Assembly (NCBI GenBank): GCA_016714745.1
Contig: JADKCG010000002.1
Span: 25,161 to 89,160 of the forward strand
Origin: Elusimicrobiota bacterium
GTDB lineage: Bacteria; Elusimicrobiota; Elusimicrobia; FEN-1173
Reading direction: 5' to 3'
DNA: 64,000 nucleotides
In this document: one piece after another, positions 1 through 38,445 of the stretch
Position numbering within the stretch: the first letter of the stretch is position 1
Layout: every line of letters starts with the position of its first letter
Program-made: the position numbers and the translations under genes
Notes under the pieces: generated by a model
The model's database searches: none
Told to the model about the DNA's origin: nothing
The model's input: only the letters and a program-made list of their open reading frames with translations

Positions 1-273
1 AGCCTCCTGATAGAGATCATAAAGCCGCTTCCCCTCCCACGGGGAACCTTGGCCAATGAGAAAACAGTCTTGGTCGGATTTAATGGTCAAGGTATCGGCT
101 GTATAGGTCTGCAGTTTGACAGCGTCCGCCCCCGCGGCCTTCGCTTCCTCCAAAATTTTTACCGCTTTGGAAAAATCTCCTTCATGGTTGGCTGACATCT
201 CAGCCACAATATAGGCAGGCGTTTCTTGACCAATAAGCCGATCATTGATCCTAATGGATCTTGGCACTGTCAT
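1..273 (-). CDS. pseI: pseudaminic acid synthase (NeuB family), N-terminal 91 codons only; the gene runs off the left edge
   Basis: Own reverse-strand translation from the ATG at 273: MTVPRSIRINDRLIGQETPAYIVAEMSANHEGDFSKAVKILEEAKAAGADAVKLQTYTADTLTIKSDQDCFLIGQGSPWEGKRLYDLYQEA. The AEMSANH and LQTYTADT...W.G..LY.LY.EA pattern is typical of PseI. The start overlaps the stop of the upstream ORF. Confidence 0.8.
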   Translation of the reverse strand, partial: MTVPRSIRINDRLIGQETPAYIVAEMSANHEGDFSKAVKILEEAKAAGADAVKLQTYTADTLTIKSDQDCFLIGQGSPWEGKRLYDLYQEA

Positions 274-1045
274 CTCTCCGCTTGACCTCAGACTCCTCCA
301 ACAACTGAAGTTGCAAAAAAACCTTTCGGCCTTTGTGCTTAAAATAGGCCCCTGGATAAGGAGGGAAAGTTCGCGCCCGAATAATGTTGATGAGATCTTT
401 TGCCACATAAGATCGATTTAAATCAATTTCATCAATTCTTTCCACATCCGAAACTCGGTGAAGAGTACCCACACCTTTTTGCTGAAAAGCGCGCCAAGGA
501 TGACCTGTGTTCCGCAAGCCAACCCAGGATTCCTGGAAAAGATGGAGACTCTCTATCTCCAAACGCCGATAAAGGCTCTCTCCCGTATCGCACACTTCAG
601 AGGGAACAGGTCTCTGGGCAATAATGTTTCCGGTGTCCACACCTTCGTCCATGAAGTGAAGAGTGACCCCCGCGGGCGTTTCTTCCACCAGACTCCACAC
701 ATTTGGATAAGCCCCCTTATTAAAAGGAAGATAACTGGGATGTAAATTGATACATCCTCGAGGGAAAAGACTCAGGATTTCTTTTCGCAAGACATAGCCG
801 AAGCCGACAGAAATCCCTATGTCAGGCTTCAATGCTTTGAGGGCGGACTGTGTTTCCGATTTTCTTAATACAGTTCCTTCAAACACTTGGCAAGTATCGG
901 GATCAATTAAAGAAAGGATTTCCTTAGCATGGCGTCCTCGCTCAGGAGGGTGAATGACCAATCCAACAATTTGTTCTCCCTGTTCCTTCAACCACCGGAG
1001 GACTTTGTATCCGATGGTGTTATTCCCAAAGTAGATAATTCGCAT
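251..1045 (-). CDS. formyltransferase-domain protein (Fmt/PurN-like fold) in a sugar context
   Basis: 264 aa ORF. MRIIYFGNN N-terminus, HPSYLPFNKG (HxSLLPxxRG-type motif) and MDEGVDTGNII (DxGxDTG motif). Sits between pseG and pseI. Confidence 0.7.
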   Translation of the reverse strand: MRIIYFGNNTIGYKVLRWLKEQGEQIVGLVIHPPERGRHAKEILSLIDPDTCQVFEGTVLRKSETQSALKALKPDIGISVGFGYVLRKEILSLFPRGCINLHPSYLPFNKGAYPNVWSLVEETPAGVTLHFMDEGVDTGNIIAQRPVPSEVCDTGESLYRRLEIESLHLFQESWVGLRNTGHPWRAFQQKGVGTLHRVSDVERIDEIDLNRSYVAKDLINIIRARTFPPYPGAYFKHKGRKVFLQLQLLEESEVKRRDDSAKIH

Positions 1046-2101
1046 TTAAGCCATCCCTAAAGCGGCCATTGCTCTTACCACTCGACTGGCCCCACGCCCA
1101 TCGACAAGGCGACGCCCACAAGAAGCCATTTTCTGTTTCTGCGCCACAGATTTGAGAAGAAACAATAATTTTCGTTGGATATTGCCTGAAAACAATTTTT
1201 TTACGTGACCCAAATTCAAAGACGCCCCTATTCGATGTAAAGAACGGGCGATCTTGGTTTGATTTTCAGCCTGCACAATCAGAAGGGCCGGAAGGCCCAA
1301 ACGCGCGATCTCCCAGACAATACTGCCCGCCGCCACGATGGCCACATCGGCCCTCGCCAGCAGTTCCGCCATATTGGGTGGGTTTCGTCGAATACGGACG
1401 CGATGGAGACCTGCCAACGGAAGGAATCCAATCAGCGTTTCTTCCCGCTGATAACCTCCGCCCAAGATCACATCGATCTCCAAAGCAGGAGCAGGAACGC
1501 TTTTCAGAGCGCTTAATACTATTTTTGTCATGTTGTGGTGATCTGTTCCTCCACCAAATATCAACACCTGATTTCGTTTAGATCTCGAGACCCTTCGCTG
1601 ACGGGAAGGCCCGAACTCTTCCCGCAACATCGCAAACCGGGGGCCCAGAAACATGCGGGTTTGAGCCTCGACGTGCGGATAGAGGCTTGGCTGGGCATGG
1701 AGATTTTGATTGATAATAATGTCTGAGAAACAATACCCGGAACTGCCCAGGTCGTCAACCCACAAAACACGAAATCCGCTTTTTTTTAAAATCTCGCGAT
1801 ACGACGAGTCAAATTGATATCCATCCACCACCACCCATCGAGCCCCAAACTTCCCCGCCGCGGCCGCTGTTTTCACAGCATCGGCCCGACCGCCCGGACG
1901 AACGCGCAGATGAACATGGCGGAACTTCTCTTGACGTATTTTAGCCAAAAGAGAGGGAAGATTGTTTGCTGTCAGGAAAACGACCCGGCCTCCCCGGGCG
2001 CGCCAGGCTTGTCCCAAAGCGATACATCGCATGATATGCCCAGTTCCCATGACAGGACCGGCATCGGCTCGAATCACTAAGACGGGGGAATCGGTCTTCA
2101 T
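1046..2101 (-). CDS. pseG: UDP-2,4-diacetamido-2,4,6-trideoxy-beta-L-altropyranose hydrolase (PseG-like)
   Basis: VLVIRADAGPVMGTGHIMRCIALGQAW N-terminus is typical of PseG/SpsG, and the rest looks GT-B-like. I prefer the ATG at 2101 (MKTDSPV) over the GTG at 2113 used in the ORF track. Confidence 0.7.
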   Translation of the reverse strand: MKTDSPVLVIRADAGPVMGTGHIMRCIALGQAWRARGGRVVFLTANNLPSLLAKIRQEKFRHVHLRVRPGGRADAVKTAAAAGKFGARWVVVDGYQFDSSYREILKKSGFRVLWVDDLGSSGYCFSDIIINQNLHAQPSLYPHVEAQTRMFLGPRFAMLREEFGPSRQRRVSRSKRNQVLIFGGGTDHHNMTKIVLSALKSVPAPALEIDVILGGGYQREETLIGFLPLAGLHRVRIRRNPPNMAELLARADVAIVAAGSIVWEIARLGLPALLIVQAENQTKIARSLHRIGASLNLGHVKKLFSGNIQRKLLFLLKSVAQKQKMASCGRRLVDGRGASRVVRAMAALGMA

Positions 2102-2102
2102 A

Positions 2103-3140
2103 TCAACCGCCACGAGCAGAACGATCTTGAGATTTTAAAACCAAAATAAAGAGCCGAAAAACATGGCGACGAAGGGCGAGTAAAAAAGAAATGGCACGCG
2201 GGCCCGCCAAGGAAACAAAAAAAAGGCCGATGCTTGAAAACGACCGGAAAGAAAATCGTAAACTTTGGCAAAAATGTTGACGGGCTTGTAATGGGGCCCC
2301 TGCCGTTAACAACCGTAGACCACTTTGATAGAAAATGGAGGAGAGGGCTTCTTTTTTTACCTTCAGGGGAACATTTTCTTTTCGGGAGTGCCACAAAACC
2401 ACGCGGACGGAGTCTTTCCACATCGCTTCGAGCCGAGTCTGCATAGCGCTTTTATCATGAACCCGGTAGAACAATAAAGGTTCAGGAATATGGTGAAAGG
2501 GTTTCACTTGGACTGCGTTTAAGAAAAAATCCCAATCAACAACTCCTGCGGGATGGGAAAAACCGCCCCGCAGTCCACCCACACGTTCCCAAACATCTCG
2601 TTCGACCATTGCTGTGGAAGAAGCCACAAAATTATTTTTCAGTAAATGAAAGAATGGATTCTTTCCTGGAGACCCCGCGCGAACCTCGCGATATGCACCT
2701 TCAGATCGAACGCAAAAACAATCGCTGTAGAACAATCCCACGTCGGGATGTTTCAACGCGTAGTCATGGTACATTTCCAGCTTTTGGGGCGGCCAATAAT
2801 CATCGGCGTCAAGAAACGCCACATACCGACACCGCGTTAAAGAAAACCCCTCATTCCGTGCGGCCGCCAACCCCCCGTTCCGTTTTCGAATCAGTTTCGC
2901 CCGGTCGGCCAGCTTTTCCACCAACTCCCCTGTGCGATCCGTGGACCCATCGTCAATAACTATGATCTCATCGGGGGCACGCGTTTGTGCCCTTACGCTC
3001 TCGAGACACTGAGCGATATACGCCTCCGCATTGTAGGCAGGAATGACCACAGCAATGGTGATGGGGTTGTCCGGGGGGAAGGGCTTGGGTTGAGTCATCG
3101 ATCGTTCAACGGTTTTGTGACGCATAATCAATGAGCTCAA
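2103..3140 (-). CDS. family 2 glycosyltransferase
   Basis: VVIPAYNAEAYIAQCLESVRAQT...IIVIDDGSTDRT and FLDADD motifs (GT-A fold, DxD). Confidence 0.85.
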   Translation of the reverse strand: MSSLIMRHKTVERSMTQPKPFPPDNPITIAVVIPAYNAEAYIAQCLESVRAQTRAPDEIIVIDDGSTDRTGELVEKLADRAKLIRKRNGGLAAARNEGFSLTRCRYVAFLDADDYWPPQKLEMYHDYALKHPDVGLFYSDCFCVRSEGAYREVRAGSPGKNPFFHLLKNNFVASSTAMVERDVWERVGGLRGGFSHPAGVVDWDFFLNAVQVKPFHHIPEPLLFYRVHDKSAMQTRLEAMWKDSVRVVLWHSRKENVPLKVKKEALSSIFYQSGLRLLTAGAPLQARQHFCQSLRFSFRSFSSIGLFFVSLAGPRAISFLLALRRHVFRLFILVLKSQDRSARGG

Positions 3141-3149
3141 TGGATCGTA

Positions 3150-4073
3150 TCACTTGAGCTTCGGGGACCTGTCGTTAAGGAGAATCTTGGTTTTTGAATT
3201 CAACAACAACTTGACCATTCCTGTCACATTTCCAAAACATTTCAAAATAAACGTCTTTTTTCTAAACACAATCCATCGAACAATATTTTCTAATGCCTGA
3301 CCAACGCTCGCCCACCAAAAAAGCGGCATAGAGAGTTCAGAGTGTTTTTTCACAAAATTATATCTGTTGATGATCTGCATTTGGCCAAATGTATAATCCG
3401 CCACCCTGTCCCCAGGGGCGTGTAAATGCAAGACAGCGGCCTCTGCGACAACGTAAAGATCATATCTCTTCGAAACGTTGTAACTAAAATCAATGTCTTC
3501 CATGAGCCCATATCCTTCGTACCACTCATCAAACTTGAACGCAGAAAGCACCTGTCTCCTCCACATGGTTGCTCCGCCATACAACCAGTGGACCTGTTGC
3601 GTTGCTTTGATTGGGCAGTACATCGTGTTATACCCCGATCGCAATATTTGTCCCTCCGATTTGCAGTCAAGGAGAAATGGCCATTTGAGAACGTTTCCCC
3701 GACGGCGGACGGGATGGTTCACGATATTAAATCCCGCTCCACCAATACAGCCATCAGCGGTTGCCCAAAACCGCATCATGGCTTCCAATGCTCCGGGTTC
3801 AAATACAAGATCATCGTCCAGGAACCCAATGTGCTCGATGTTTGCATCAAGCTCGGCAATGCCCCTGTTGCGCGCCTCGGTGATCGATGATTTTTCGCGA
3901 AGATATTTGATCGGAATTCGTGTATGTTCACTGAGAAGAGGGTGAAGGTCGTGCGCACCTCCATCGACAATGACGATGGAGGTAGGCAAAACCGATTGCT
4001 GTTCTAAACTCTTCAGCAACCGCCCCATTTCGTGAGGCCTATTTTTTGTTGGTACAACAAAACCAAATTTCAT
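3150..4073 (-). CDS. family 2-like glycosyltransferase
   Basis: FVVPTKNRPHEMGRLLKSLEQQS...IVIVDGG and FLDDDL (DxD) motifs. Confidence 0.7.
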   Translation of the reverse strand: MKFGFVVPTKNRPHEMGRLLKSLEQQSVLPTSIVIVDGGAHDLHPLLSEHTRIPIKYLREKSSITEARNRGIAELDANIEHIGFLDDDLVFEPGALEAMMRFWATADGCIGGAGFNIVNHPVRRRGNVLKWPFLLDCKSEGQILRSGYNTMYCPIKATQQVHWLYGGATMWRRQVLSAFKFDEWYEGYGLMEDIDFSYNVSKRYDLYVVAEAAVLHLHAPGDRVADYTFGQMQIINRYNFVKKHSELSMPLFWWASVGQALENIVRWIVFRKKTFILKCFGNVTGMVKLLLNSKTKILLNDRSPKLK

Positions 4074-4082
4074 GGAATGTTC

Positions 4083-5867
4083 CTATTCAAGAAAGAGATG
4101 CATGGCGGCCTTTGTCACAGGCCCAAAATATTTACCAACGTACACCTGTGCCCGAGAAAATCGTTCTTGCCATTGTTCCTCGCTAAAAGATCGGACATCT
4201 GCCATGGCTTGAATAAAATCTTCTCTCGTGCGAACTGTCCATTTGGCATCGGATAGCTCAAAGAGAGGATCGGCATCTAGGAAATCGTCCACCGGGATAT
4301 GAAAAAGGGGTTTTCCGCGCTTCAGACAGTTAATGGCCAACGTGGATGAACTGTAGATGGCCACATCTGCCCAGTCAATCATTCGATCATGATCCAAAAA
4401 AGTGTCTTCAACAAATGGAAATTGGATTTTCGAACGAAGATCTTTGTTAAGAGGAATCATCGGGTGTGGACAAAGACAAAAGGAACATTCCATGCCTTTC
4501 TGATATATCGAATTGATAGCGGCAATCATTCGATGATAATAATCACGACTCGCTGAGAGCACCACCAGGAAACGAAGAGGCGCTTGACGCCGGTGTGTAT
4601 CAAAGACAGTGTTTCCCCGTTGCCTTAGGGCACAGCCGGTCTTCACGATTTCCCGAGGGAATAGCCCGAGGTCCACCAAAATCCGGCTCGTGATCTCACC
4701 AGAAGAAATGACCACATCCGGCAGAGGCATGCGGTCATTTTGAGAGCGAAAATATTCCGTATGCTTCCGTGTAATCGTAGCGTGCTGATATCCAATGATC
4801 CGAGTGTCTTTGCTGTGCGCTCGTATGACGCGCATATCCGAGCGTTCAAATCCTCGATTTTCATAAGGCAAAATAAACCGGTCGACGTCCCATCCTTCCA
4901 CAAGTTTTCTCGTCGCTCGCTCATTCATCACGCTCACCAAATATTGGTCCGACCTCACCTCATTCATGACACAGTCACGCACGATGCGTCGCATCGAAAT
5001 CCCACGGAACGGAGATGTCCGCAAAAACGAGAAGATCGTTTGGATCAACGCTCCCATCGCCTGAATGAAACTCCCGAAGAGTTCTGGGAGAGTGAGCCAT
5101 TGCTCTATGGAACAGACCAGTCCCTGGGCCGATCGCCGTGTCCCCCTAAGAAAATCGTGATACGAGTCGATCACATTCCCAATGACAAAAACGTTCCTTC
5201 TGTTTTCCTCCAGGAAATGAGGCAATTCTCCAAAATACAGATCGCGATAGCTCCCCTGCCCGTCAAAGGATCCTTTACTGATAACTGTTTTGATCACCAC
5301 CAGCCGCCGAAGGTCTTTGGACAATAAAAAATGCCCTGAAACACATTTCCGCCCCACCGCCATAAAAAATCCGTAAATCATCCTTCCAGGCAATAAGTCC
5401 GTCAGAAGCCGGCGGATCCATGATCGATTCACTGTGAAATCATGAATGGGGCGATGTTTCCAATTCGATCGTGTTTGCCGAATGACAACAGGGTCGTCCA
5501 CAACAAAAACAATGTCCTGGGAATAAGTTTCTAAAACGTGATTCAAACACGTTGCATAAAAAACATGTTCACAGAATCCCGTGGAATGCACTCGTTTGCC
5601 GGCCAGGCTCAGACGTTTCCAAATAACGGATTCTTGAGAATTGTTGAGTTCCCCCATCCATGCCACAATGTCCTCTCCAAAGCTTCGGTTGACGTTCAGA
5701 AAAACGTCCCGAACGGGAATGGGAGTCCCCCCAGCCATCGAAAGACTTTTTGCCACTTCGCCGGAAAGATACTCTTTCAAGACAAGATAGCGAAAGGGAC
5801 GAACGGGAATCTTTTTGAGAGCTTTCTGAACCCCCTTTAATGAGTTGACGAAAAAAACTCCATTCAT
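4083..5867 (-). CDS. large uncharacterised protein with a GT-B-like C-terminal half (candidate glycosyl or nonulosonate transferase)
   Basis: 594 aa ORF, start coupled by ATGA to the upstream gene. The C-terminal motif DWADVAIYSSSTLAINCLKRGKPLF resembles the GT-B donor-binding end. Architecture is shared with 26804..28852 and 35584..37530. Confidence 0.5.
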   Translation of the reverse strand: MNGVFFVNSLKGVQKALKKIPVRPFRYLVLKEYLSGEVAKSLSMAGGTPIPVRDVFLNVNRSFGEDIVAWMGELNNSQESVIWKRLSLAGKRVHSTGFCEHVFYATCLNHVLETYSQDIVFVVDDPVVIRQTRSNWKHRPIHDFTVNRSWIRRLLTDLLPGRMIYGFFMAVGRKCVSGHFLLSKDLRRLVVIKTVISKGSFDGQGSYRDLYFGELPHFLEENRRNVFVIGNVIDSYHDFLRGTRRSAQGLVCSIEQWLTLPELFGSFIQAMGALIQTIFSFLRTSPFRGISMRRIVRDCVMNEVRSDQYLVSVMNERATRKLVEGWDVDRFILPYENRGFERSDMRVIRAHSKDTRIIGYQHATITRKHTEYFRSQNDRMPLPDVVISSGEITSRILVDLGLFPREIVKTGCALRQRGNTVFDTHRRQAPLRFLVVLSASRDYYHRMIAAINSIYQKGMECSFCLCPHPMIPLNKDLRSKIQFPFVEDTFLDHDRMIDWADVAIYSSSTLAINCLKRGKPLFHIPVDDFLDADPLFELSDAKWTVRTREDFIQAMADVRSFSEEQWQERFSRAQVYVGKYFGPVTKAAMHLFLE

Positions 5868-6886: not shown

Positions 6887-6898
6887 TCCAACGGCTCC

Positions 6899-8362
6899 TT
6901 ATGAGGATCTATACTTCTTAACCAATTCCAGCAACACGCCATCGTCCTCCTCTGCCTTTTTTAACAGAGGAAATTCTTCGCGTTTCACCTTGGTGTAGAG
7001 CATAAATGTTTTATAAAGATTTTTGATTTCCTTTTTCGATAGCTGTGGCATGGTAAGAACGCTTGTGTCGGCGGGATACTCGTATGTATCTCCTGTGGGA
7101 TCAAAAAAGCCATTATCTATACAAACTTTCCGCAATCGAGAACCCATGTAGGGTTGAAAAATACCGACCGAATAGGTCGCGGGTCGACAACGGCGAAACA
7201 GCTCAATGGTCTCAAAAATCAGCTCGCGGGTTTCGAACGGCAGACCGATCATGGCAAATGCTGAGGGAAGCACTTTGCTTCGATGAAATATATCGAAGGC
7301 CTCAACAATTCGGTCGTTGGACATCCTCCTATTCAAAACCTCCGCCCGGAACTTCTCGTTGCCCACCTCAATGCCAATCGTCATCAAATAGCACCCCATG
7401 TCCTCAACAATGCGAACTTTTTCTTCGGTCACAGACTGGGGGTGTGTCATGGCATAGAAAGGAATCTTGACGTGACGTTTGTACTCGTGCGCCAACTCCT
7501 TAAGCAAATTGATATTGATCGAAAGGAATGTTTCGTCAAGAAAGTAGAACATCTCGACGTTATACGTGTCCCTTAAAAAGACCAAATCCTCTATGGTCTT
7601 TGAAACGCTCTTGTGGCGAAGATATTTGTGGGGCCCCGTTAAATTGCGCAACGCCGTGCATGAGCAATAATGGCACGAATAGGGGCACCCTCGGCTGAAT
7701 TCGACGGACCCTATCCTCCGAACCCGGCCGTTTAAAGGGGTGTAAATGTGTTGCTCAGAAAACAAACTCCAATCCAAAACAGGAAGACTGTTGAGAGATA
7801 CCAGCTCCCGAAGGGGATTCTTGAATATTTCGCCATTCTGCTTGATCCAGAGGTTCTTGACACCCACAATACTTTGTTTCTTGTCCATACGCTCCAAAAG
7901 TTCTTCCATGGCCAACTCGCCTTCGCCAATGCAAAGCATATCGACACACGATTCGGCGATCACATCCTTAGGGCAAAGAGAGGGATGGAGTCCGCCGAAA
8001 ATAATAGGAGTCCCAGGGTGCTCCGCCTTGACCTTACGAGCCAGGCGAAGAGCTAAATAGTATTGAGCCGAAAGCGTTGAAAAACCCACGATATCCGGGC
8101 GAAATTCGGAAATTCGACGGATCAGGGCGGTTTCCATATCGCCGTCCTCATAGGCCAGGGCGACTGGATTTTCCACCGGCTTATAGAGACCAAATTTTTC
8201 TCCGATAATCGTACGGTTCTTATTTACAAACTCTCGGAAAAAAGTGGAGTCAAAAATTTCAACGGTGTGTCCCAAGGACTTAATGTAGCTCGCCAAGTTG
8301 GTCAGCCCAATCGGGTAGGAACCTCGCATCGCCGTATTCAGATAAACAAACAGAATTTTCAT
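6899..8362 (-). CDS. B12-binding-domain radical SAM protein
   Basis: N-terminal Rossmann-like MKILFVYLN...DIVGFS...IIFGGLHPS, then SRGCPYSCHYCS (CxxxCxxC). Confidence 0.85.
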   Translation of the reverse strand: MKILFVYLNTAMRGSYPIGLTNLASYIKSLGHTVEIFDSTFFREFVNKNRTIIGEKFGLYKPVENPVALAYEDGDMETALIRRISEFRPDIVGFSTLSAQYYLALRLARKVKAEHPGTPIIFGGLHPSLCPKDVIAESCVDMLCIGEGELAMEELLERMDKKQSIVGVKNLWIKQNGEIFKNPLRELVSLNSLPVLDWSLFSEQHIYTPLNGRVRRIGSVEFSRGCPYSCHYCSCTALRNLTGPHKYLRHKSVSKTIEDLVFLRDTYNVEMFYFLDETFLSININLLKELAHEYKRHVKIPFYAMTHPQSVTEEKVRIVEDMGCYLMTIGIEVGNEKFRAEVLNRRMSNDRIVEAFDIFHRSKVLPSAFAMIGLPFETRELIFETIELFRRCRPATYSVGIFQPYMGSRLRKVCIDNGFFDPTGDTYEYPADTSVLTMPQLSKKEIKNLYKTFMLYTKVKREEFPLLKKAEEDDGVLLELVKKYRSS

Positions 8363-12878: not shown

Positions 12879-12882
12879 AAAA

Positions 12883-13740
12883 TTAGAAAAACGTGTTCAA
12901 GCCGACGTTCGCCGCTTCCATGATCTCATTAAAACGGGGCGAGCGTAGGAACTTAAATGTCTCTTCTCTCGAGGCAATAACCCTGTCTCGCTTTTTTAAG
13001 TCGTCGTCCGTTCTGCCAGGATGGCAATAAAAAATGTCTTTTTCCCTGGGCTTCATGGTCAGATAATGGCGAAATACTGTCTCAAATCTATCGCCCCCCT
13101 CGTACACATAGTATCCCAGGAGATACCTATTGTGTGGGATGCCGCTTTTTTTCATCAATTTCCGGGAAAAGTGACCTGGGATGTGAATGAACATATTTCG
13201 AATAGCAAAACTGACGGAATACGTCCACCCCGAAGAAATACACCAGGGGAGAGGTAATCCAGCTACCCGCGTATAAATCGGACGAATCTTCTCTCTACTT
13301 AAGATCACTGCCTTAACAGCTTCACGCACAACCGGAAGCTGTTGAACGTGTTGGTGCCCATCAATGTAGTCGGGGTCTCGCCCAGTAATTTCCGAAAAAC
13401 GCTGTATCTGTGCCTTAATTTCTGCCAAGACAGATTCATAGTTAAGAACTCTTAAGTAGGCCTTTTTCATTAAATTCCCGAAAGAGAGAAAATCCCCTTG
13501 CGCGTCCACAAGGCCAGAATCTTGCTTGAGGACCGTCAGGGGCCTGCCTTCCGTTAACACAAGATGCAATCCCAAATCATACCTTGTCTTAATCAACCGA
13601 AGTTGTTCCAAAGATTTTTCAACTTCTGGCCAGATCACCATGCAACTGGTCGCGGAAACCCGTTTTCCCTCTATCAATTCAATAATACTTTCACTGACGG
13701 CAGGAGAAATCCCATAATCGTCAGCGCATAAGATCATGTG
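12883..13740 (-). CDS. ChbG/HpnK (YdjC-like) carbohydrate deacetylase family protein
   Basis: MILCADDYGISPAVSESIIELIEGKRVSATSCMV is a typical YdjC-family N-terminus. I start at this Met (13740) rather than 13785. Confidence 0.8.
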   Translation of the reverse strand, partial: HMILCADDYGISPAVSESIIELIEGKRVSATSCMVIWPEVEKSLEQLRLIKTRYDLGLHLVLTEGRPLTVLKQDSGLVDAQGDFLSFGNLMKKAYLRVLNYESVLAEIKAQIQRFSEITGRDPDYIDGHQHVQQLPVVREAVKAVILSREKIRPIYTRVAGLPLPWCISSGWTYSVSFAIRNMFIHIPGHFSRKLMKKSGIPHNRYLLGYYVYEGGDRFETVFRHYLTMKPREKDIFYCHPGRTDDDLKKRDRVIASREETFKFLRSPRFNEIMEAANVGLNTFF

Positions 13741-13830
13741 GGTATTTCTTTCTTTGGAATTCGGTGATGAGCGATCCCACTCCAAACGAGAGAGAAGATA
13801 CGATGGCCCCTTCTATTTCTAAATTTTAGT

Positions 13831-17367: not shown

Positions 17368-17373
17368 TGTTCC

Positions 17374-18162: not shown

Positions 18163-18211
18163 TGATGAACTCTTTTTTTTAGATACCCGATTGTCCGGAC
18201 CGGGAACTGGT

Positions 18212-22362: not shown

Positions 22363-22496
22363 TCTATTCCTCCAATGACCAGCGTCCCAAGATCTGACAT
22401 TGAACCGCGGTCATTTTTTCTTCTCTCAGAGCCTGGAAACCATTTGATATCCAATCTGTGGGCACAAGCGATTGTCAACCGTCCTTTCTGGTTTTG

Positions 22497-28852: not shown

Positions 28853-28870
28853 GTGAAAGACATGCTCCCC

Positions 28871-30808: not shown

Positions 30809-31403
30809 CGTTGCCTCCTTTCAATCTTTGCCCGCCTCTTACGTATTCGTCCCTCAACAACCCCATACGAAAACAGTCCACGTACGAACCGTCTACATAA
30901 AAATGCTGCCGCAAAATCCCCTCCACTTTGAACCCAATGCGCAGGAACGCACGGTGAGACGCCTCGTTGCCCATGATCATTCCGCAGTAGAGTTTGTGTA
31001 AATTCAGTCGCCCAAAGGCATGCTCAACAACGAGCCGAATCGCTTCTGTTCCGTATCCTCTGCCGCGAGACCGCTTGTCTCCGATCAAAATGCCGACCTC
31101 CGCATGACGGTCTTTCCATTGGATATCGGTTAATGAAATATTTCCCATATGTTTTTTGCTTTTTTTCAAGAAAATACCAAGGAGAAGGCCATTTTTATTG
31201 AGCTCATAGGTGCGGACATACGTCCGCAATTCTTGAACAGTCACGGGGAATCGTCCAACGGCCATAAATCGAGTTGTGTCTTGGTCATTGACCCAATCCA
31301 CATAGTAGGACATATCCGCTTTTTCGGAAATCAGTCCAAGCACCACGTGCTTTCCTACTAGGTATTTTGTTTTCATCTTTCCCGCTCTGTCTATTATTTT
31401 CAT
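30795..31403 (-). CDS. GNAT N-acetyltransferase (RimJ/RimL-like); possible PseH-type role
   Basis: HAEVGILIGDKRSRGRGYGTEAIRLVVEHAF...NEASHRAFLRIGFKVEG (GNAT motifs A and B). Confidence 0.75.
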   Translation of the reverse strand: MKIIDRAGKMKTKYLVGKHVVLGLISEKADMSYYVDWVNDQDTTRFMAVGRFPVTVQELRTYVRTYELNKNGLLLGIFLKKSKKHMGNISLTDIQWKDRHAEVGILIGDKRSRGRGYGTEAIRLVVEHAFGRLNLHKLYCGMIMGNEASHRAFLRIGFKVEGILRQHFYVDGSYVDCFRMGLLRDEYVRGGQRLKGGNDDHA

Positions 31404-31440
31404 TCATCCACCCAATTCGCAAAACCAAATTTTTTGATTT

Positions 31441-32469: not shown

Positions 32470-32530
32470 TTAACCCCCTTCGATTCCGATTCAGACGATC
32501 CCCGTTGATCGGTCCTTTTCATTCTATCAC

Positions 32531-33238
32531 TCAAGTCGTCCGGCTTCGAGCGATACTTTCGGCAAATAAAAAATCCCGTTCCTCATCAATATCAAGCCCC
32601 TGAAAATGATCCAGCACATAATAATACGGTTTTTCGCCTATTCTATCCCCTATTATTTTCATCGTGTCCACATTTGTGATAAAAACCGCTGAATTAACGA
32701 TATACCATTCAGGAAGCGTCTGGGTGCGTGGCCATTTCTCAGCTTTCCTAGAATAATTGACCGGACCGCTCTGGTCCCATATGAAGGTCTTTAAAGACGT
32801 GACCGACATTAGCGAATCAAACCCGCTATTCAACGATTCGACATACAGATCGATGGCCTTCGTCAGCACCCTGTCGTCTGCAAAGGGTTGAGTTGTATGA
32901 GTCCATAAAACGTGCTTGGTTTTTATCTTTGGGGCAATATGTTTGATTAAATCATCGGTGCTTGTGGAGCTTCCTGCGAATTTCGGATCCCGCCGTTCCA
33001 CCCTAATTGATGAAACATCCTCTCCCGCCCCTTTGAGCCGATCCAAAATGTCTGTTATTTCCGGCACATCCGTATCCACCACGATCTCGTCCAAGGCTTT
33101 CACCCTTAATAACTGCTTGATTTTGAGTTCTGTCAACCCAAAGGGATATGGACCGAAGGGACGGGTATTTTTATTTAGGACCCTTTGACTCCCCGCACGA
33201 ATGGGGAGAACAGCCGAGATGGTTTCCCCCTTCATCAT
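32531..33238 (-). CDS. acylneuraminate (NeuA-type) cytidylyltransferase
   Basis: ISAVLPIRAGSQRVLNKNTRPFG N-terminus. Start placed at the MMKGE Met, which abuts the stop of the upstream gene (ATGATGA). Confidence 0.7.
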   Translation of the reverse strand: MMKGETISAVLPIRAGSQRVLNKNTRPFGPYPFGLTELKIKQLLRVKALDEIVVDTDVPEITDILDRLKGAGEDVSSIRVERRDPKFAGSSTSTDDLIKHIAPKIKTKHVLWTHTTQPFADDRVLTKAIDLYVESLNSGFDSLMSVTSLKTFIWDQSGPVNYSRKAEKWPRTQTLPEWYIVNSAVFITNVDTMKIIGDRIGEKPYYYVLDHFQGLDIDEERDFLFAESIARSRTT

Positions 33239-34929
33239 GTCGTGGCCTCCCAAACGACCCGATGGTGCTTCTGAAAGATCGTGGGCGTGATGATCCAAAA
33301 AGCCGCGGATTTCTCAGCAAGGATAACGCGCGCTGTCTCCAATTCTTTATGTGTCATCTGATTCAGTGTTTCAAATTCTTGCCTCTTCTCGTCCGATTCA
33401 TCTTCCGCTTTTTTCTCCGGCGAATCCGAGTTGGGGTAATAAAAAAGATTTCTCTCGTTGGGAGAAAACCCATCCATCCCTGCCACATAGATTTCCTTGA
33501 ACCCGATCGCGGCCATCGACAAAATGGCTTGCACTCCTGAATTGGTTGGCAATTTATGGGGAAAAACGTACTCTTTGTTTAAAGAAAATGCGTCAATGGG
33601 AATTCTCGAAATAGTGTCTTGAGGCCCCCCCTCTCCCTCGTCGATTTCGATGTAGGGGTTGAGAATCACTTGCACCCCAGCTCCCCCCTTTTGATAATTT
33701 TGTCTTAACCGACGGGCGCTTCCAAAAAAGACGGCATCCGTTCGTTCTGGAAGAAAATTATTGTTTACACACACGACCGCGCATTTCGTTTCATCAACGA
33801 ACCGGCGGATGGAGTCCATGGATGTGCCCAGGGTCCCTCCCCCACACGCGATCAACACTTTCCCTTGGGAAGATCCGACCAGGCCCCTCACTTTTGTCGT
33901 GGTGACGGGCATCAACTTTTTTGCTTTTTCTATTTTGTATTGGAAAGCAACATTGATATTTTTTTCTCGGTTAAATTCAGCTCGTTCGTCAAAAGGGATT
34001 TTACTGAGTGCAAGAAAAACCTCTTTGGCTGAATAAATTTTCAGTTTCAGCATTTCCCCAGCGTAGTGGGGGTGACAATTCAGCGCCCCAGAGACGACTT
34101 GCGCCACTGAATTTCCCCATTTATATTGTTTTTTTAACGGCTCCATGTAAATTTCAGCGAAATCAAGCAAAGGGAGCGCGTTGTATCTTGTCGGACTAAC
34201 TTGACCAAGATAGAGAAGCAATGTCTCTATGGGTAAATTTCCTCCTCCCCTCCCCATCCCATTAACAGAACCATCAATGATGGAGACACCCCCTTGAATG
34301 GCCTCAAGTGTGTTGGCAAAAGCCAGTTGGAGATTGTTGTGCGGATGAAATCCCAGGGGGGCATCTGTCTGCGATCGGATGGTTTTTAAAATGTCCCTCA
34401 ATTTTGATGGGATGAGACTGCCAAAGCTATCCGCAAGATAAAAATACGTCACTTGTTTTTTATACTTTTCCATAAGACAGGCAAGGGCATTCATTTCCGA
34501 TGGGGTGTAATTTGAAATTCCCATGAAATTGACACTGGTTTCGTACCCCTTCCCCGCCAATTGCGCGGCAAGCTCAGCTCCCCGTTCCGCATCGGCCTTG
34601 CGTGTGACGATTCGAAGAATGTCCGCCCCAAAATCCCCCTGACGGGGAAACAGGCCAGCGATCAACTCTTTTGAAAAATCAACCAGGAGGGAAACACGGG
34701 CTCCGTTTTTGAATGAGCCGCGGATATCATTGATTAGTTTTGAGTCGCAGTTCCTAAAAAGGGAGGCCTTATCTGCCAAGGGGCTACAAAATCCCAACTC
34801 AACGTATTCGCACCCGGATGAGCTGACCGCCCAATACAGAGCTTTTCCGAAATCCACACTAAAATTCCAGTTGTTAATGTAACCGCCGTCGCGGATGGTA
34901 CAGTCAAGTATTTTGAGATTTTCAAACAT
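33235..34929 (-). CDS. two-domain fusion: N-terminal DRE-TIM metallolyase (HMGL-like aldolase) plus a C-terminal Cst-II/Maf(DUF115)-like Rossmann domain
   Basis: N-terminal LDCTIRDGGYINNW and GFHPHNNLQLAFANT (metal ligands of HMGL-like aldolases). C-terminal KVLIACGGGTLGTS...AVVCVNNNF...PTNSGVQAILSMAAIGFKEIYVAGMDGF parallels the Campylobacter Cst-II motifs VIIAGNGPSL...FRCNQFYFE...TSGVYMCAVAIALGYKEIYLSGIDFY as I recall them. Confidence 0.6.
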   Translation of the reverse strand: MFENLKILDCTIRDGGYINNWNFSVDFGKALYWAVSSSGCEYVELGFCSPLADKASLFRNCDSKLINDIRGSFKNGARVSLLVDFSKELIAGLFPRQGDFGADILRIVTRKADAERGAELAAQLAGKGYETSVNFMGISNYTPSEMNALACLMEKYKKQVTYFYLADSFGSLIPSKLRDILKTIRSQTDAPLGFHPHNNLQLAFANTLEAIQGGVSIIDGSVNGMGRGGGNLPIETLLLYLGQVSPTRYNALPLLDFAEIYMEPLKKQYKWGNSVAQVVSGALNCHPHYAGEMLKLKIYSAKEVFLALSKIPFDERAEFNREKNINVAFQYKIEKAKKLMPVTTTKVRGLVGSSQGKVLIACGGGTLGTSMDSIRRFVDETKCAVVCVNNNFLPERTDAVFFGSARRLRQNYQKGGAGVQVILNPYIEIDEGEGGPQDTISRIPIDAFSLNKEYVFPHKLPTNSGVQAILSMAAIGFKEIYVAGMDGFSPNERNLFYYPNSDSPEKKAEDESDEKRQEFETLNQMTHKELETARVILAEKSAAFWIITPTIFQKHHRVVWEATT

Positions 34930-35574
34930 AAGGTATTAGGTCTTTCATGTTTTTAATTTTTTTCCACACATGGACTGAATCCATTTTTGCTCCAGACGGG
35001 TAATAAACAAACCGAATCCCAAATGAAAAAGCCGCGTTGGCATCGGCCGTCGCATCCCCGACAAAAATTAAGTTTTCCGGAACCATCTTTTGTGACCCCA
35101 AAATTTGTCTCACGCCTTCCTCTTTTGAAATCGGGGACCCGAAGATCCCGTTGAACTTTTCAAAAATCCCCAGTCGAGTTAAGTGAAAATCAAGTTCGGC
35201 CCGGGGGGCTCCTGAAACAACAAACATCTTAATCCCTTTATTGGCACAGATGGAGGTCAAATCCGAAACCCCCGGTGTCAGCTGTGCCGTTTCCATATAA
35301 TTGTCAATGCATTTGTCAAGGGAATCAAGCATTGATATTAACGAATCTTCGCTCACAGGCACCCTCACGATATTATTAATGAAATACTTCACTTGATTAA
35401 CCCGCCCTACGCCGTAAGAAGCCAAATGATATTCCATAAATTCCCGTTCCCACTGTGGGTAATATTTGGTGACCCATTCCCTGAACGCTTTAACTTTTTT
35501 TCAATGGAATCGATCAATACCCCGTCGCAATCGAAAAGAATGGCTCTTATTTTATCCTTTTTCCTCTCCATCAT
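34922..35574 (-). CDS. HAD-superfamily hydrolase, frameshifted at a T7/A7 homopolymer in this assembly
   Basis: Own translation from the ATG at 35574: MMERKKDKIRAILFDCDGVLIDSIEKK (HAD motif I, DxDGV). It leaves frame at the T-run 35495-35501. One extra base gives ...VKAFREWVTKYYPQWEREFMEYHLASYG, joining ORF 34922..35437. Confidence 0.8.
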
Positions 35575-35583
35575 AGAATCGTA

Positions 35584-37530
35584 TTAATTTTCCAGAGCCC
35601 CACGAACAAAGTGAGAAATGTTGGCGGAATAATCTTTCGTGTATTTGTAGGGCTCAAAAGATTTATCCCCGATAGGCGTTTTATTCCTTTTGGCCTGGCG
35701 GAGATAGTCAAGTGCCTTTGGGAGCAGGGGAGTCTCTGTGACGTAGCAAACGGGAAAAAAGGGTCCATCCGTCTCCGCGACATTTTTGGTGAACTCTGGC
35801 GTATTGAAATGGTTGTATCGTGACCAACGATCGTACAACAACACGGGAATGCCGTTTATCAAGGATTCATCAATGACTGTCGAGGAATAGCTCACAACGA
35901 CGTCGGCGCAGGCCAACACCTGGGAAAAGGGCCCCTCTCTGTGGATAATAAGATGGCTTGGATTGCCGAGCCTATTCCTTATTTCATCATCATTCAGTAT
36001 GAACCCCGGGTGGAGCCTGAGGACATAGCGCGCGTGGTCCAATCGACCGACCGCCTCGAGCATATCCCGCACACCGATAAAAAACTCGTCCAGTGTTTCA
36101 ATAAACAAGTATCGCTCCCCACTTCGGTTTTTTATCGTGGAAGCGTGCACGACAACAAAATCATCATCAGCCAACCCCAAATTGCGTCGTGCTTTTTTAA
36201 TTTTGTTACCATCCAGATCCACAAATATCAACGGGCCTGTTCTCAGTCCGACCCCCCGGACAAAATCATACTTCTCTTTAAAATAATTAAAATGTGCTTC
36301 TTGAACGGGTGTCGCGAGGGCAACGACCGGGAAAACCCCCAGCATGAATCCGCGACACAAATTGAGCAGTTCAACTTCGTAGGGCGGGGAAGAAGGCACC
36401 GGGTGCGATCCGTGGGAGATAAACAGAGACGGTTTATTTGACAACGAAAAGAGTTCGCCAACCACACCATACAGATCAACCCCCACATGCGACAGAAAAA
36501 TAGATCGTTTGCAGAATGCCATATACTGATCGACCCTTTCCGCTTGCATAACAAGGGCCTCCATGTGGGGAAACAAACCGGCGCGCGCTTTCTTTATCAA
36601 TATGGATTTTAAGGAAATACCGAAAAGCATGCACACCCCATCCGGGAGAGATTGAAGCGCCTGGTCAAGAGCGCTCGTCATTTCCGCTCGCCCCGGAAAT
36701 GAAGGGACCAAAGACTTCCGAGGCCGTGTTGGGATAAAAAATCGCACAGGCCTCCACCTCACAAACAGGCGCGCCAGGGACACGAAGTTCCAGAGAAGAC
36801 TTTTGACGTTGTAAGACTTTCTCGTTAGAACGACATAGGTCGGGTTGTGGGGTTTTAATATTTTTTCAACCTTATTGAAGGATTGACCGAGGGGCGGTGT
36901 AAAAATAACTTTTTCCCTCTGTAAGGTTGAAAAAATGATTCGTGCGAGCACGTCGGAAAAGAATCCACATGCTTTATCCCAAACTCGGGATACCCGGAGC
37001 GGAGAAGTGGACGATTTTTCATGGCCGGCCAAAGCAACGAACGGGATATTCCTCTGTCGGCAGAATCGTTCCGCTATTTCACCTAAGAATCTCTCTTGAT
37101 CGTCGATCATTGCTGTATTTTTAACGATCGATGACGAAAAGAAATAGAGAGTCAGACCTGGATAATGATCAATAATGGAATTCACGATCCATGCCATCTT
37201 GAAGAGGTGATTGGCATAAAAGCGGAGATGAAGGGCGACCTCAATCCCATACGAGATTTTTACCCCAAATTGATCCGCGAATTGGAACAAAGAACGAATC
37301 GACTCCATCAGCGGCTCAACGGCGTAAATAAGGGTCGAATGGATGTGGGGGGGGAAGAACGCAAGGGTGTCTTCGAAAACAACTTGTTTTTTGCTCAAAA
37401 AAACTTGCAAAGCCGGCTCGCAAGCAACAATCGTAAATTCAGAAATCGCAAGACCATGCGCAGAGCAATACTCCTCCAATAGGCAATATTCATTAGTGAA
37501 TTCAAGGACAGCGACATGTCGATCGGTCAT
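35584..37530 (-). CDS. large uncharacterised protein with a GT-B-like C-terminal half
   Basis: 648 aa. C-terminal FVVVHAST...YVLRLHPG...VLACADVVVSYSSTVIDESLINGIPVLLYD resembles the GT-B donor-binding end, as in 4083..5867. Confidence 0.5.
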   Translation of the reverse strand: MTDRHVAVLEFTNEYCLLEEYCSAHGLAISEFTIVACEPALQVFLSKKQVVFEDTLAFFPPHIHSTLIYAVEPLMESIRSLFQFADQFGVKISYGIEVALHLRFYANHLFKMAWIVNSIIDHYPGLTLYFFSSSIVKNTAMIDDQERFLGEIAERFCRQRNIPFVALAGHEKSSTSPLRVSRVWDKACGFFSDVLARIIFSTLQREKVIFTPPLGQSFNKVEKILKPHNPTYVVLTRKSYNVKSLLWNFVSLARLFVRWRPVRFFIPTRPRKSLVPSFPGRAEMTSALDQALQSLPDGVCMLFGISLKSILIKKARAGLFPHMEALVMQAERVDQYMAFCKRSIFLSHVGVDLYGVVGELFSLSNKPSLFISHGSHPVPSSPPYEVELLNLCRGFMLGVFPVVALATPVQEAHFNYFKEKYDFVRGVGLRTGPLIFVDLDGNKIKKARRNLGLADDDFVVVHASTIKNRSGERYLFIETLDEFFIGVRDMLEAVGRLDHARYVLRLHPGFILNDDEIRNRLGNPSHLIIHREGPFSQVLACADVVVSYSSTVIDESLINGIPVLLYDRWSRYNHFNTPEFTKNVAETDGPFFPVCYVTETPLLPKALDYLRQAKRNKTPIGDKSFEPYKYTKDYSANISHFVRGALEN

Positions 37531-38445
37531 TTAGGTATATCCGATCGCGATAAGGGCATCGGAAACCCCTCGCACAGAGAGTTGTTTCTTATAATAATTC
37601 TCAACATCTGCGTATTCAGATGCTATGGTAAATGCAGGGTTCTCAATTTGGGGTTTGCCAACCCGAAGCCAGTGAAAGAGATTTTCCAATCCATACCGTT
37701 GCTCAAAATAGACACATCCCCTCTTGTATCCCGCTTTTTTTAAACATTCTTTAAGCGTGATTGCCGAAAAATAATGAAGATGGGCCCTAATCCAATAGAA
37801 ATCGTTGTAAGCCTTACACGTTCTCAGCAGTAATTCCTCCACATTTGGGACCTCGCATATTAAAACCCCCCCCTTTTTAAGAAGGGCTTTGCTTCGCAAA
37901 AGGAAATCAACTGGATTGCGTGTATGTTCCAATACATGGAACATGGTGATAACGTCAAACGGACCCCCTTTCGGGATCTCGGATAAAATGTCCGCGTCAA
38001 ACAATGGAGCGGAGATATTTCTTTTTCCAATCATTCGCCGCTCTTGGCTTATTTCAACCCCAACCACTTTGTGGTATCCACGGCGAAACATCCCATCGAT
38101 AAAAAAACCATAGCCCGCCCCAACGTCAAGAATTTTGCTCTGCTTTGAACGGCAAAACTTCGAAACAAAAGCTATGTGACGATCGGTATCGAATTGGTTG
38201 TTCTTTTTAAGTGCGCTAAAATAAATTTTCTTTCCGACAGACTTGTCCTGCTGATTCAAATCGTAATACGCCTTTTCCTTTTCAATGTTTGGCTGTGGGT
38301 ATAGTTGGACATGCCCGCATGTGAAACAACAATATACTTTGCTTTTTTGAGAACCATCCCTTAATCGGGAGGAGACAAGCCGATGCCTGTTATGTCCACA
38401 CAAAGAACATTTAAAATTATTCGTAATCATGAGGTGGATCCCCAA
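37531..38445 (-). CDS. class I SAM-dependent methyltransferase with an N-terminal zinc ribbon; first gene of the island
   Basis: CSLCGH...CFTCGHVQLYPQP, then ILDVGAGYGFF (motif I). Same architecture as 5864..6886. Confidence 0.8.
   Translation of the reverse strand: MGIHLMITNNFKCSLCGHNRHRLVSSRLRDGSQKSKVYCCFTCGHVQLYPQPNIEKEKAYYDLNQQDKSVGKKIYFSALKKNNQFDTDRHIAFVSKFCRSKQSKILDVGAGYGFFIDGMFRRGYHKVVGVEISQERRMIGKRNISAPLFDADILSEIPKGGPFDVITMFHVLEHTRNPVDFLLRSKALLKKGGVLICEVPNVEELLLRTCKAYNDFYWIRAHLHYFSAITLKECLKKAGYKRGCVYFEQRYGLENLFHWLRVGKPQIENPAFTIASEYADVENYYKKQLSVRGVSDALIAIGYT

Follow-up and report, generated by a model that had tools for sequence, protein, structure and literature searches.

An uncultured Elusimicrobia bacterium with a probable three-layer surface-glycan island that encodes three ancient NeuB paralogues and four radical SAM enzymes

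Introduction

Nonulosonic acids shape the recognition of bacterial surfaces by phages, hosts and neighbouring cells, and the known chemistry of these sugars derives from a handful of pathogens. Here we describe a 38-kb gene island at positions 1-38445 of a 64,000-nucleotide (nt) stretch of Elusimicrobiota DNA (assembly GCA_016714745.1, contig JADKCG010000002.1, positions 25,161 to 89,160 of the forward strand), which we call the window. The island carries three genes for nonulosonic acid synthases of the NeuB family, namely a PseI-type fragment, NeuB2 and NeuB3, three genes for cytidylyltransferases (CTPa, CTPb and CTPc) and four genes for radical S-adenosylmethionine (SAM) enzymes, two of which have a SPASM domain and are 342 and 353 amino acids (aa) long.

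The described system to which part of the island can be compared most directly is the PseB-PseC-PseH-PseG-PseI-PseF pathway of pseudaminic acid (Pse) synthesis in Campylobacter and Helicobacter. The island shares PseB, PseG, a DegT aminotransferase and a PseI-type fragment with it and has a PseJ-like formyltransferase, as in the Pse5Ac7Fo variant. However, neither PseH nor a classical PseF is found in the island at the model cut-offs, pseC is frameshifted, and the pathway genes are spread over 21 kb among unrelated genes. Corresponding genes stand in a row, together with the closest formyltransferase that we found (47% identity), in Ca. Kuenenia stuttgartiensis (locus L003), but there they form a compact six-gene operon, and the 20 kb of sequence inspected around it contains neither NeuB2 nor NeuB3 nor a radical SAM enzyme.

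Several nonulosonic acid synthases and CMP-nonulosonic acid synthetases stand together in the flagellar glycosylation locus of Campylobacter jejuni. The nonulosonic acid cluster of Leptospira interrogans is similar to the island in that it has several NeuB synthases and CMP-nonulosonic acid synthetases per locus, which was taken as a sign of more than one nonulosonic acid (PMC3438082). Whereas the Leptospira and Campylobacter loci contain full legionaminic acid (Leg) or Neu precursor sets (LegB, LegC, LegH, LegG), no second set is recognisable in the part of the island that lies in the window, and whereas no radical SAM enzyme is reported for the Leptospira cluster in PMC3438082, the island has four. 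In the sps legionaminic acid pathway of Bacillus subtilis (PMC7439481), which resembles the island in its SpsF-type cytidylyltransferases, the synthase SpsE (PDB entry 1vli) is the nearest solved relative of NeuB2 (193 bits). Nevertheless, NeuB2 falls outside the SpsE group in our tree and below both NCBIfam equivalog cut-offs.

A further likeness is to the spiro-SPASM model (TIGR04321), the first half of which is matched by SpsF-type cytidylyltransferases and the second half by SPASM radical SAM enzymes. The 342-aa SPASM enzyme corresponds to model positions 224-502 (87 bits) and CTPa to positions 20-226, and the CTPc gene is located directly upstream of the 342-aa SPASM gene. However, the island genes are unfused, and three separate island proteins match the model with 87, 40 and 32 bits, whereas its cut-off is 250.

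In full-text literature searches we found no relevant paper that connects radical SAM enzymes to flagellin glycosylation or to any nonulosonic, pseudaminic or legionaminic acid, no paper linking Elusimicrobia with nonulosonic acids, and no characterised locus matching the gene set of the island. A preliminary description of this DNA, made from its sequence, had proposed nonulosonic acid chemistry that is not obviously described. Two elements of the island, the multi-synthase layout (PMC3438082) and the formyl branch (PMC11040635), are known. What is new here is a conserved set of about ten genes, present in several lineages and centred on SPASM enzymes and on NeuB proteins of two unstudied clades.

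Results

Three distinct NeuB-family synthases

Gene content (Table 1) was established by Pfam and NCBIfam scans of every open reading frame (ORF) in combination with an internal jackhmmer sweep of ORFs of at least 50 aa. What is described below on gene content, on family assignments, on the NeuB proteins having arisen separately and on the recurrence of their neighbourhood is directly observed.

The family scans placed three NeuB-family genes exactly where the preliminary description had put them. The 91-aa fragment at the left edge of the window matches the solved PseI structure (PDB entry 8h2c) with 71 bits, SpsE with 38 bits and NmNeuB with 25 bits, and it is 56% identical to PseI of the Kuenenia pse operon. 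The family of NeuB2 is large: 5932 relatives were retrieved at E<=1e-20, and they are distributed across many uncultured phyla. NeuB3, in turn, is rare: in an exhaustive search of 1.84 billion cluster representatives, five clusters had at least 39% identity to it and the next matches scored 199 bits or less. Among solved structures, the SAF-less synthase 6ncs, which we take to be a Leptospira enzyme, is closest to NeuB3.

NeuB2 and NeuB3 are 24% identical to each other. We constructed a neighbour-joining tree (344 columns, 100 bootstraps) with four PDB reference sequences, which were rebuilt from printed PDB alignments and miss their termini, and with no characterised LegI. The PseI clade, the NeuB2 clade and the NeuB3 superclade were each recovered at 91-100% bootstrap. 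The NeuB2 clade had 100% bootstrap with all four PDB references outside of it, none of the four fell into the NeuB3 group either, and only the PseI clade contained a solved or characterised enzyme. The three paralogues are hence ancient and distinct, with separate origins. Recent duplication within one characterised clade, which the preliminary description had named as one outcome that would speak against it, is ruled out by the 24% identity and by the three separate, supported clades.

NeuB3 retains the metal ligands, the residues that handle phosphoenolpyruvate (PEP) and the catalytic residues, namely E25, K53, Q55, K129, D134, H215, E234, H236 and D247 in NmNeuB numbering (the roles of the metal ligands H215 and H236 and of E25, E/D134, E234, K53 and K129 are those given in PMC8208679). 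Six changes are found on the substrate side: T110D, S132A, N184Q, Y186F, S213M and R314C. R314 is the residue that the SAF domain contributes to the active site of the partner subunit (PMC8208679).

A conserved gene set around NeuB2, NeuB3 and a SPASM enzyme

The gene order NeuB3-CTPb-NeuB2 is kept in the related Elusimicrobia loci L001, L002 and L009. A gene of the 342-aa SPASM type lies directly upstream of a core consisting of NeuB3, a cytidylyltransferase and NeuB2 in L010/L011 (Margulisbacteria), L014 (a 665-kb metagenomic contig), L016 (a contig with a protein that was named by NCBI from an Omnitrophica metagenome-assembled genome, MAG) and in L018 and L019, which represent two further lineages. 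L014 has a fusion of the NeuB3-type synthase with the cytidylyltransferase, and its last gene encodes an STT3/PMT_2 protein. The dual-NeuB core thus recurs in several lineages, and the guanine-plus-cytosine (GC) content of the loci that carry it ranges from 0.39 to 0.70.

Where they stand beside NeuB3-type, cytidylyltransferase and NeuB2-type genes (L009, L010, L014, L016, L018 and L019), the relatives of the 342-aa SPASM enzyme are 40-82% identical to it. A 39% identical relative in L015 has an unrelated context, which sets the edge of this family near 40% identity. For at least 17 of the best approximately 45 relatives, the longest contig had the same size as that of a NeuB2 relative. The two SPASM enzymes of the island are 29% identical to each other over just 121 aa.

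The core is usually accompanied by one or more of the 594-, 648- and 682-aa proteins, a GT2 glycosyltransferase and a flippase. In L018 and L019, tblastn identified companions that match the 648-aa protein (33-36% identity), the 353-aa SPASM enzyme (45%, in L019), the HMGL-like aldolase (35%, in L019), the 594-aa protein (22-29%), the 682-aa protein (32%), a GT2 enzyme (55%, in L018), the 304-aa methyltransferase (50%, in L018) and the flippase (42%). Relatives of CTPc adjoin 648-aa-like genes in both loci, and relatives of the 594-aa protein are found alongside the core in L009, L010, L018 and L019.

Fusion proteins provide a second view of the same association. P0276, a 963-aa protein of our representative library, is NeuB2-like in residues 3-364, NeuB3-like with a SAF domain in residues 388-711 and a cytidylyltransferase in residues 719-942, so that its domains mirror three neighbouring genes of the window. 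Among the 147 best NeuB3 representatives, 51 are 520-620 aa long, and every one of these that was scanned or aligned is a fusion of a NeuB3-type synthase with a cytidylyltransferase. A GT2 domain is added to this pair in P0314 and P0388, and in P0306 and P0310 a GNAT domain, 33% identical to the island GNAT, is fused to the NeuB3-type domain. P0276 suggests that the two synthases may serve one pathway rather than two sugars and, because it fuses both, NeuB2 and NeuB3 could act as one unit. The fusion proteins are clonable targets for determining the substrates of the second and third synthases and the function of the radical SAM enzymes.

A different arrangement was seen in L017 (Vulcanimicrobiota MAG GCA_054941295.1, 85985-100971), a glycan-type locus in which a flippase and a PseB-like gene are accompanied by as many as four genes for B12-binding radical SAM enzymes. 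A cytidylyltransferase gene lies directly upstream of a SPASM gene there (35% identity to the 342-aa enzyme), and no NeuB gene was seen in 15 kb.

A formyl-type pseudaminic acid route

PseB and PseG both score above their equivalog cut-offs (Table 1). PseH (TIGR03585) and PseF (TIGR03584) were not found at theirs: the sole GNAT of the island reaches about half of the PseH cut-off, and the best match to the PseF model, CTPc, about a quarter of that cut-off. The formyltransferase gene stands beside pseG and pseI, and the top PDB match of its product is PseJ (6ci2/6ci4, 99 bits), the formyltransferase behind Pse5Ac7Fo (PMC11040635). The adjacency of pseG, formyltransferase gene and pseI recurs in four other loci, including contigs from Kuenenia, Lachnospiraceae and Bacteroidales.

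The Kuenenia locus L003 has the row pseC, SpsF-type cytidylyltransferase, pseG, formyltransferase, pseI, with pseB adjoining and pseH absent. CTPa is 41% identical to the L003 cytidylyltransferase, which is located between pseC and pseG, in the position of PseF. It is plausible from these matches that PseB, PseC, the PseJ-like formyltransferase, PseG, PseI and CTPa constitute a route to CMP-Pse5Ac7Fo, in which the SpsF-type CTPa likely substitutes for PseF. CMP-nonulosonic acids with one formylated and one free amine were measured in Kuenenia and assigned to a gene cluster, termed Leg-related, that encodes both a deacetylase and a formyltransferase (preprint 10.64898/2026.04.20.719630) and that may or may not correspond to L003. 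The YdjC-family protein of the window is likewise a possible deacetylase.

Proposed function and alternative explanations

The explanation that we favour, with a probability of roughly 0.6, is that the locus is a three-layer island for the biosynthesis and export of a surface glycan in an uncultured Elusimicrobia bacterium. The individual reactions, the acceptor and how many different sugars are made are all inferred rather than observed. In layer 1, UDP-GlcNAc would be converted by PseB, PseC, the PseJ-like formyltransferase (in place of PseH), PseG, PseI and CTPa to a CMP-Pse5Ac7Fo-like sugar. Layer 2 would have a core of the 342-aa SPASM enzyme, NeuB3, CTPb and NeuB2, with the second SPASM enzyme, CTPc, the HMGL-like aldolase, the GNAT, a GT2 enzyme and the 594-, 648- and 682-aa proteins as recurrent partners. 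NeuB3, NeuB2 or both would condense PEP with an amino sugar acetylated by the GNAT, CTPb would activate the product, and a SPASM enzyme would modify it, so that at least one further CMP-activated, radical-SAM-modified keto-acid sugar would be made. Layer 3 would supply tailoring by the pair of B12-radical SAM enzymes (probably C-methyltransferases), four SAM methyltransferases, the YdjC protein (possibly a deacetylase) and the AsnB-like ligase. The GT2 and GT28-type transferases, probably together with the large proteins, would assemble a lipid-linked glycan, Wzx would flip it, and the GT-C enzyme would move it to a periplasmic acceptor. In NCBIfam, the precedent for a SPASM enzyme that acts on a sugar is BlsE, and the 342-aa enzyme matches the BlsE model weakly (34 bits).

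Several points count against this explanation. The island runs past the left edge, so that only a part of it is within the window. Just one precursor route, that of Pse, is recognisable in the window, where no NeuC/LegG-type hydrolysing 2-epimerase (Epimerase_2) and no LegB were found among the island proteins. Family scans of the window detected no initiating phosphoglycosyl transferase (WbaP, WecA), Wzy, Wzz or ligase, and hence the assembly route is incomplete as read; Wzx is present, and the GT-C-like protein is the only other polytopic protein of the island. Genuine frameshifts in pseC and CTPb would disrupt layer 1 as well as layer 2. Finally, the roles proposed for the large proteins are tentative, given the weak matches and the unusable structure models. 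The preliminary description had proposed more than one nonulosonic acid, or a heavily modified one. Three distinct synthases and three cytidylyltransferases agree with this proposal; the single precursor route and the P0276 fusion, which hints at a shared pathway, qualify the part on more than one acid.

It is unlikely, in our judgement, that the island makes a single heavily tailored pseudaminic acid, with NeuB2 and NeuB3 joined in a single unit, hetero-oligomeric or accessory, and with non-ulosonic substituents as the substrates of the extra cytidylyltransferases. The presence of PseB, PseC and PseG as the only precursor route in the window, the union of NeuB2-like and NeuB3-like domains with a single cytidylyltransferase in P0276, and the cysteine that replaces R314, the SAF residue serving the partner active site (PMC8208679), in Elusimicrobia NeuB3 are all in line with one sugar. 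However, the metal and PEP ligand sets are complete in both NeuB2 and NeuB3, a PseI-type synthase is present as well, synthases and cytidylyltransferases stand at 3 : 3, and the dual-NeuB core occurs in L010, L014 and L016, where the PseB-like gene is only 26-29% identical. A decaying, horizontally acquired remnant that makes no glycan is quite improbable. Here the frameshifts of pseC and CTPb and the short methyltransferase would be real, and the three disrupted or shortened genes per 38 kb, a GC content 9 points under that of the flank, and the split NeuB2, NeuB3 and 594-aa genes of L009, with its methyltransferase and GT-C remnants, would all be signs of decay. Yet mreB and rodA of the window are split likewise, which indicates assembly indels, the remaining island genes are intact and tightly packed, and the L001 orthologues are intact.

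Two other functions were considered for the island. We doubt strongly that it serves to glycosylate flagellin or pilin, as comparable islands do in Campylobacter, Aeromonas or Geobacillus, with cytoplasmic Maf-type transfer of nonulosonic acids directly onto a filament protein. Such islands, in which formyltransferases and methyltransferases are common, mix pse and leg genes with methyltransferases, formyltransferases and aminotransferases (PMC5109656), and a distant NeuB2 relative lies near a faint MptE-like (Maf-type) match in L012. But a Maf/MptE-like protein, flagellin, pilin and flagellar genes are all absent from the window, the Wzx protein, the GT-C enzyme and a membrane-anchored GT2 enzyme indicate lipid-linked assembly outside the cytoplasm, and the related locus L014 terminates in an STT3/PMT_2 protein. 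A small-molecule cluster, similar to those for aminoglycoside or nucleoside antibiotics, would explain the KedN5-type B12-radical SAM enzyme, the BlsE-like SPASM/Twitch enzyme, the class-III aminotransferase and the AsnB-like ligase, which are of types typical of such clusters, although the NCBIfam matches are weak. This is highly improbable given the surface-glycan hallmarks Wzx, GT-C, several GT2/GT28 enzymes, three NeuB proteins and three CMP-type cytidylyltransferases, and no resistance gene, regulator or transporter of the antibiotic-cluster type was seen.

Within the three-layer explanation, a bolder proposal can be made, which we put forward tentatively and regard as somewhat unlikely. 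The conserved core and its partners would make an undescribed class of CMP-activated ulosonic acids, with NeuB2 and NeuB3 working as one unit, either as a heterodimer or in successive steps, and with a radical SAM enzyme altering the carbon skeleton. As a matter of speculation, a C10 backbone would arise if a B12-radical SAM enzyme methylated the 9-deoxy methyl group. Mass spectrometry of Magnetospirillum has revealed CMP-linked C10 keto acids, to which no genes were assigned, in a study that does not mention radical SAM enzymes (preprint 10.64898/2026.04.20.719630). The set of about ten genes, which recurs in Elusimicrobia, Margulisbacteria and other uncultured lineages and in which radical SAM enzymes accompany NeuB proteins of two unstudied clades, could offer candidates for such unassigned higher-carbon CMP-keto acids.

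Gene content of the island

Much of the inventory in the preliminary description was borne out by the family scans: two B12-type and two SPASM-type radical SAM proteins, a formyltransferase, a GNAT, a flippase, a GT-C-like protein (a weak PMT_2 match) and three large proteins without a Pfam match are all present. It had counted four cytidylyltransferases, three intact and one split, and five SAM methyltransferases. Our counts are three cytidylyltransferase loci, of which two are intact and the third is split, and four class-I methyltransferases. It had also listed pseB, pseC and pseG, and PseB and PseG are indeed above their cut-offs, but it did not note that pseC is split by a 1-nt deletion. 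Its AsnB-like ligase is a weak match (Table 1). Two GT2 enzymes, the GT28/GT1_3 enzyme, the YdjC protein, the aldo-keto reductase (AKR), the class-III aminotransferase, the HMGL-like aldolase and the HAD hydrolase had been omitted.

Table 1. Genes of the island in order of window position, with the family evidence for each. Scores are in bits; "cut-off" is that of the model named or indicated.
Feature	Coordinates	Strand	Evidence and remarks
PseI-type pseudaminic acid synthase, N-terminal 91 aa	1..273	-	Pfam NeuB; gene runs off left edge
PseJ-like sugar N-formyltransferase	251..1045	-	Formyl_trans_N + N_formyltrans_C
PseG, UDP-sugar hydrolase	1046..2113	-	TIGR03590 222.8, cut-off 153.55
GT2 glycosyltransferase, C-terminal hydrophobic segment	2103..3140	-	Glycos_transf_2 125
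Second GT2 glycosyltransferase	3150..4073	-	Glycos_transf_2; relative in L018
594-aa protein, distantly TIGR04326-like (surface carbohydrate biosynthesis protein)	4083..5867	-	No Pfam match; TIGR04326 39, cut-off 250
Class-I SAM methyltransferase, 340 aa	5864..6886	-	Methyltransf_23
B12-binding radical SAM enzyme, 487 aa, probable methyltransferase type	6899..8362	-	B12-binding + Radical_SAM; NCBIfam sub-threshold only
B12-binding radical SAM enzyme, 728 aa, KedN5-like	8359..10545	-	Radical_SAM + weak B12-binding
GT-C-like polytopic membrane glycosyltransferase, 778 aa	10542..12878	-	PMT_2 24, below gathering score; ~10 or more hydrophobic segments
YdjC-family protein, possibly carbohydrate deacetylase	12883..13785	-	YdjC 178
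GT28/GT1_3-type (MurG/PseG-like fold) glycosyltransferase	13831..14898	-	Glyco_trans_1_3 + Glyco_tran_28_C; kept in L001
Class-I SAM methyltransferase, 202 aa	14895..15503	-	Family scan
Class-I SAM methyltransferase, 175 aa, N-terminus shortened	15500..16027	-	L001 orthologue 225 aa
Class-III (glutamate-1-semialdehyde aminomutase-like) aminotransferase	16024..17367	-	Aminotran_3; closest NCBIfam model 230, cut-off 486
CTPa, SpsF-type cytidylyltransferase, inferred CMP-Pse synthetase	17374..18246	-	CTP_transf_3
AKR	18212..19066	-	Family scan
pseC-type DegT aminotransferase, split	19096..20237	-	Two ORFs = DegT profile 3-125 and 128-359
PseB, inverting UDP-GlcNAc 4,6-dehydratase	20251..21246	-	TIGR03589 483.9, cut-off 407.75
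Radical SAM/SPASM enzyme, 353 aa	21301..22362	-	Family scan; relative in L019
NeuB2, NeuB+SAF synthase	22497..23555	-	TIGR03569 326, cut-off 399.65; TIGR03586 259, cut-off 340
CTPb, cytidylyltransferase, split by 2-nt insertion	23467..24332	-	Intact orthologues 245 aa
NeuB3, divergent NeuB-family synthase	24298..25326	-	TIGR03569 126, cut-off 399.65
Wzx-type flippase	25323..26837	-	Polysacc_synt_3, Polysacc_synt; ~12 hydrophobic segments
682-aa protein, two N-terminal hydrophobic segments	26804..28852	-	No Pfam, NCBIfam or PDB match; relatives in L001, L010, L018
645-aa protein, weakly asparagine-synthetase-like, possible amide ligase	28871..30808	-	TIGR01536 44, cut-off 267
GNAT (Acetyltransf_3) N-acetyltransferase	30795..31403	-	PseH model 47.5, cut-off 93.1
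Radical SAM/SPASM enzyme, 342 aa	31441..32469	-	Type recurring beside dual-NeuB genes
CTPc, cytidylyltransferase	32531..33298	-	CTP_transf_3 36; PseF model 51, cut-off 205.7
HMGL-like (DRE-TIM) aldolase, 290-aa C-terminal half unannotated	33235..34929	-	Relative in L019
HAD-family hydrolase	34922..35437	-	Family scan
648-aa protein	35584..37530	-	No Pfam/NCBIfam match; weak GT-B match of C-terminal stretch
Class-I SAM methyltransferase, 304 aa, first island gene, at GC step	37531..38445	-	Relative in L018

The large proteins yielded little to structural comparison. The sole PDB match of the 648-aa protein, to the GT-B enzyme SpnP (4ldp; E 0.0036, residues 510-566), is marginal, and no informative match came from PDB sequence searches with the 594-, 645-, 682- and 778-aa proteins. 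AlphaFold models built from single sequences were too poor for use, with a mean predicted local distance difference test score (pLDDT) of 33 for the 594-aa protein and 36 for the 648-aa protein. Orthologues of the 645-aa protein are found in L001 and L009 (77-80% identity).

The 487-aa B12-radical SAM enzyme has relatives in L017 (31-34% identity), and the 728-aa enzyme has an orthologue in L009 (74% identity); a metagenome scan with the latter returned only one relative, with 26% identity. The 728-aa protein fails the KedN5 family model NF033712 (131 bits vs a cut-off of 700) and has the domain architecture alone in common with that family. The trio of AKR, CTPa and aminotransferase is kept in L001 and L009. 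The possible role of the YdjC protein in carbohydrate deacetylation is suggested by its family.

Layout and borders of the island

Positions 1-38445 are occupied by a continuous run of minus-strand ORFs, which gives 33 genes, the pseI fragment included, once two frameshifted pairs are merged. The genes overlap by ATGA at 7 junctions, by GTGA at 1, and by 8, 11 and 14 nt at 3 others. The preliminary description had reported 33 minus-strand genes with short ATGA-type overlaps, and the ORF run and these 11 overlapping junctions agree with it. So does the sharp compositional step that it had pointed out: GC content rises from 0.428 at 38.0-38.5 kb to 0.534 at 38.5-39.0 kb, and it is 0.467 in 1-38445 vs 0.559 in 38446-64000.

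The flank at 38.5-64 kb contains core genes (RNase G, rodA, PBP2, mreBCD, rpoA, rpsD, map, secY and rpsC). These too are on the minus strand, so that the island does not stand out by having all of its genes on one strand. No tRNA was found at the island border and no integrase or transposase among the genes scanned beside it, and the low GC content of the island can therefore not be tied to a mobile element. Just beyond the border, the region 38525-42750 has a higher GC content and contains two ORFs (126 and 317 aa) without a family match, a Schlafen/AlbA_2 + HATPase_c_4 protein, an M4 (thermolysin-type) peptidase and a MarR-like regulator.

A scan for promoters and terminators gave promoter matches near the shuffle expectation and did not inform the operon structure. 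Two consensus matches, both on the minus strand, may be mentioned: a promoter-like TTGACA-18 nt-GACAAT at 22471-22500, in a 134-nt intergenic stretch upstream of the 353-aa SPASM gene, and a terminator-like hairpin at 38451-38469, in the 79-nt gap upstream of the first island gene.

Frameshifts and sequence quality

Set against L001, a related locus of metagenomic origin in which the orthologues are intact, pseC shows a 1-nt deletion in a G run (the L001 orthologue has 380 aa) and CTPb a 2-nt insertion. In the flank, rodA (45443-46814) consists of two overlapping ORFs that correspond to Pfam profile positions 3-184 and 171-353, and mreB (50237-51269) of two that correspond to positions 1-155 and 160-326. 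As mreB and rodA are split in the same manner, the frameshifts in pseC and CTPb are probably assembly errors and not gene decay. The 175-aa methyltransferase has lost its N-terminus relative to the L001 orthologue. In the adjoining region 16024-16177, the class-III aminotransferase is about 11 codons longer than its L001 orthologue and covers the expected methyltransferase start, the L001-type ATGA junction is lost, and about 20 nt are missing.

In L009 (a 2.76-Mb Elusimicrobia contig, GCA_016721625.1), NeuB2, NeuB3 and the 594-aa gene are split too. Remnants of the 175-aa methyltransferase (51 aa) and of the GT-C protein (100 aa, 40%) are located at 16182-16579, between the aminotransferase and the B12-radical SAM gene, which suggests that L009 lost the methyltransferase/GT28/YdjC/GT-C segment by deletion. 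The 353-aa radical SAM gene is absent from the corresponding spot of this contig.

The segment 20251-22362, which comprises PseB, a spacer and the 353-aa SPASM gene, has 98.3-100% nucleotide identity to L001 12943-15054 over 2.1 kb (98.3% for the SPASM gene), whereas the genes on either side are only 68-84% identical to L001. Such a pattern would be expected if a cassette of pseB and the radical SAM gene had recently been exchanged between lineages, or if a metagenome assembly is chimeric.

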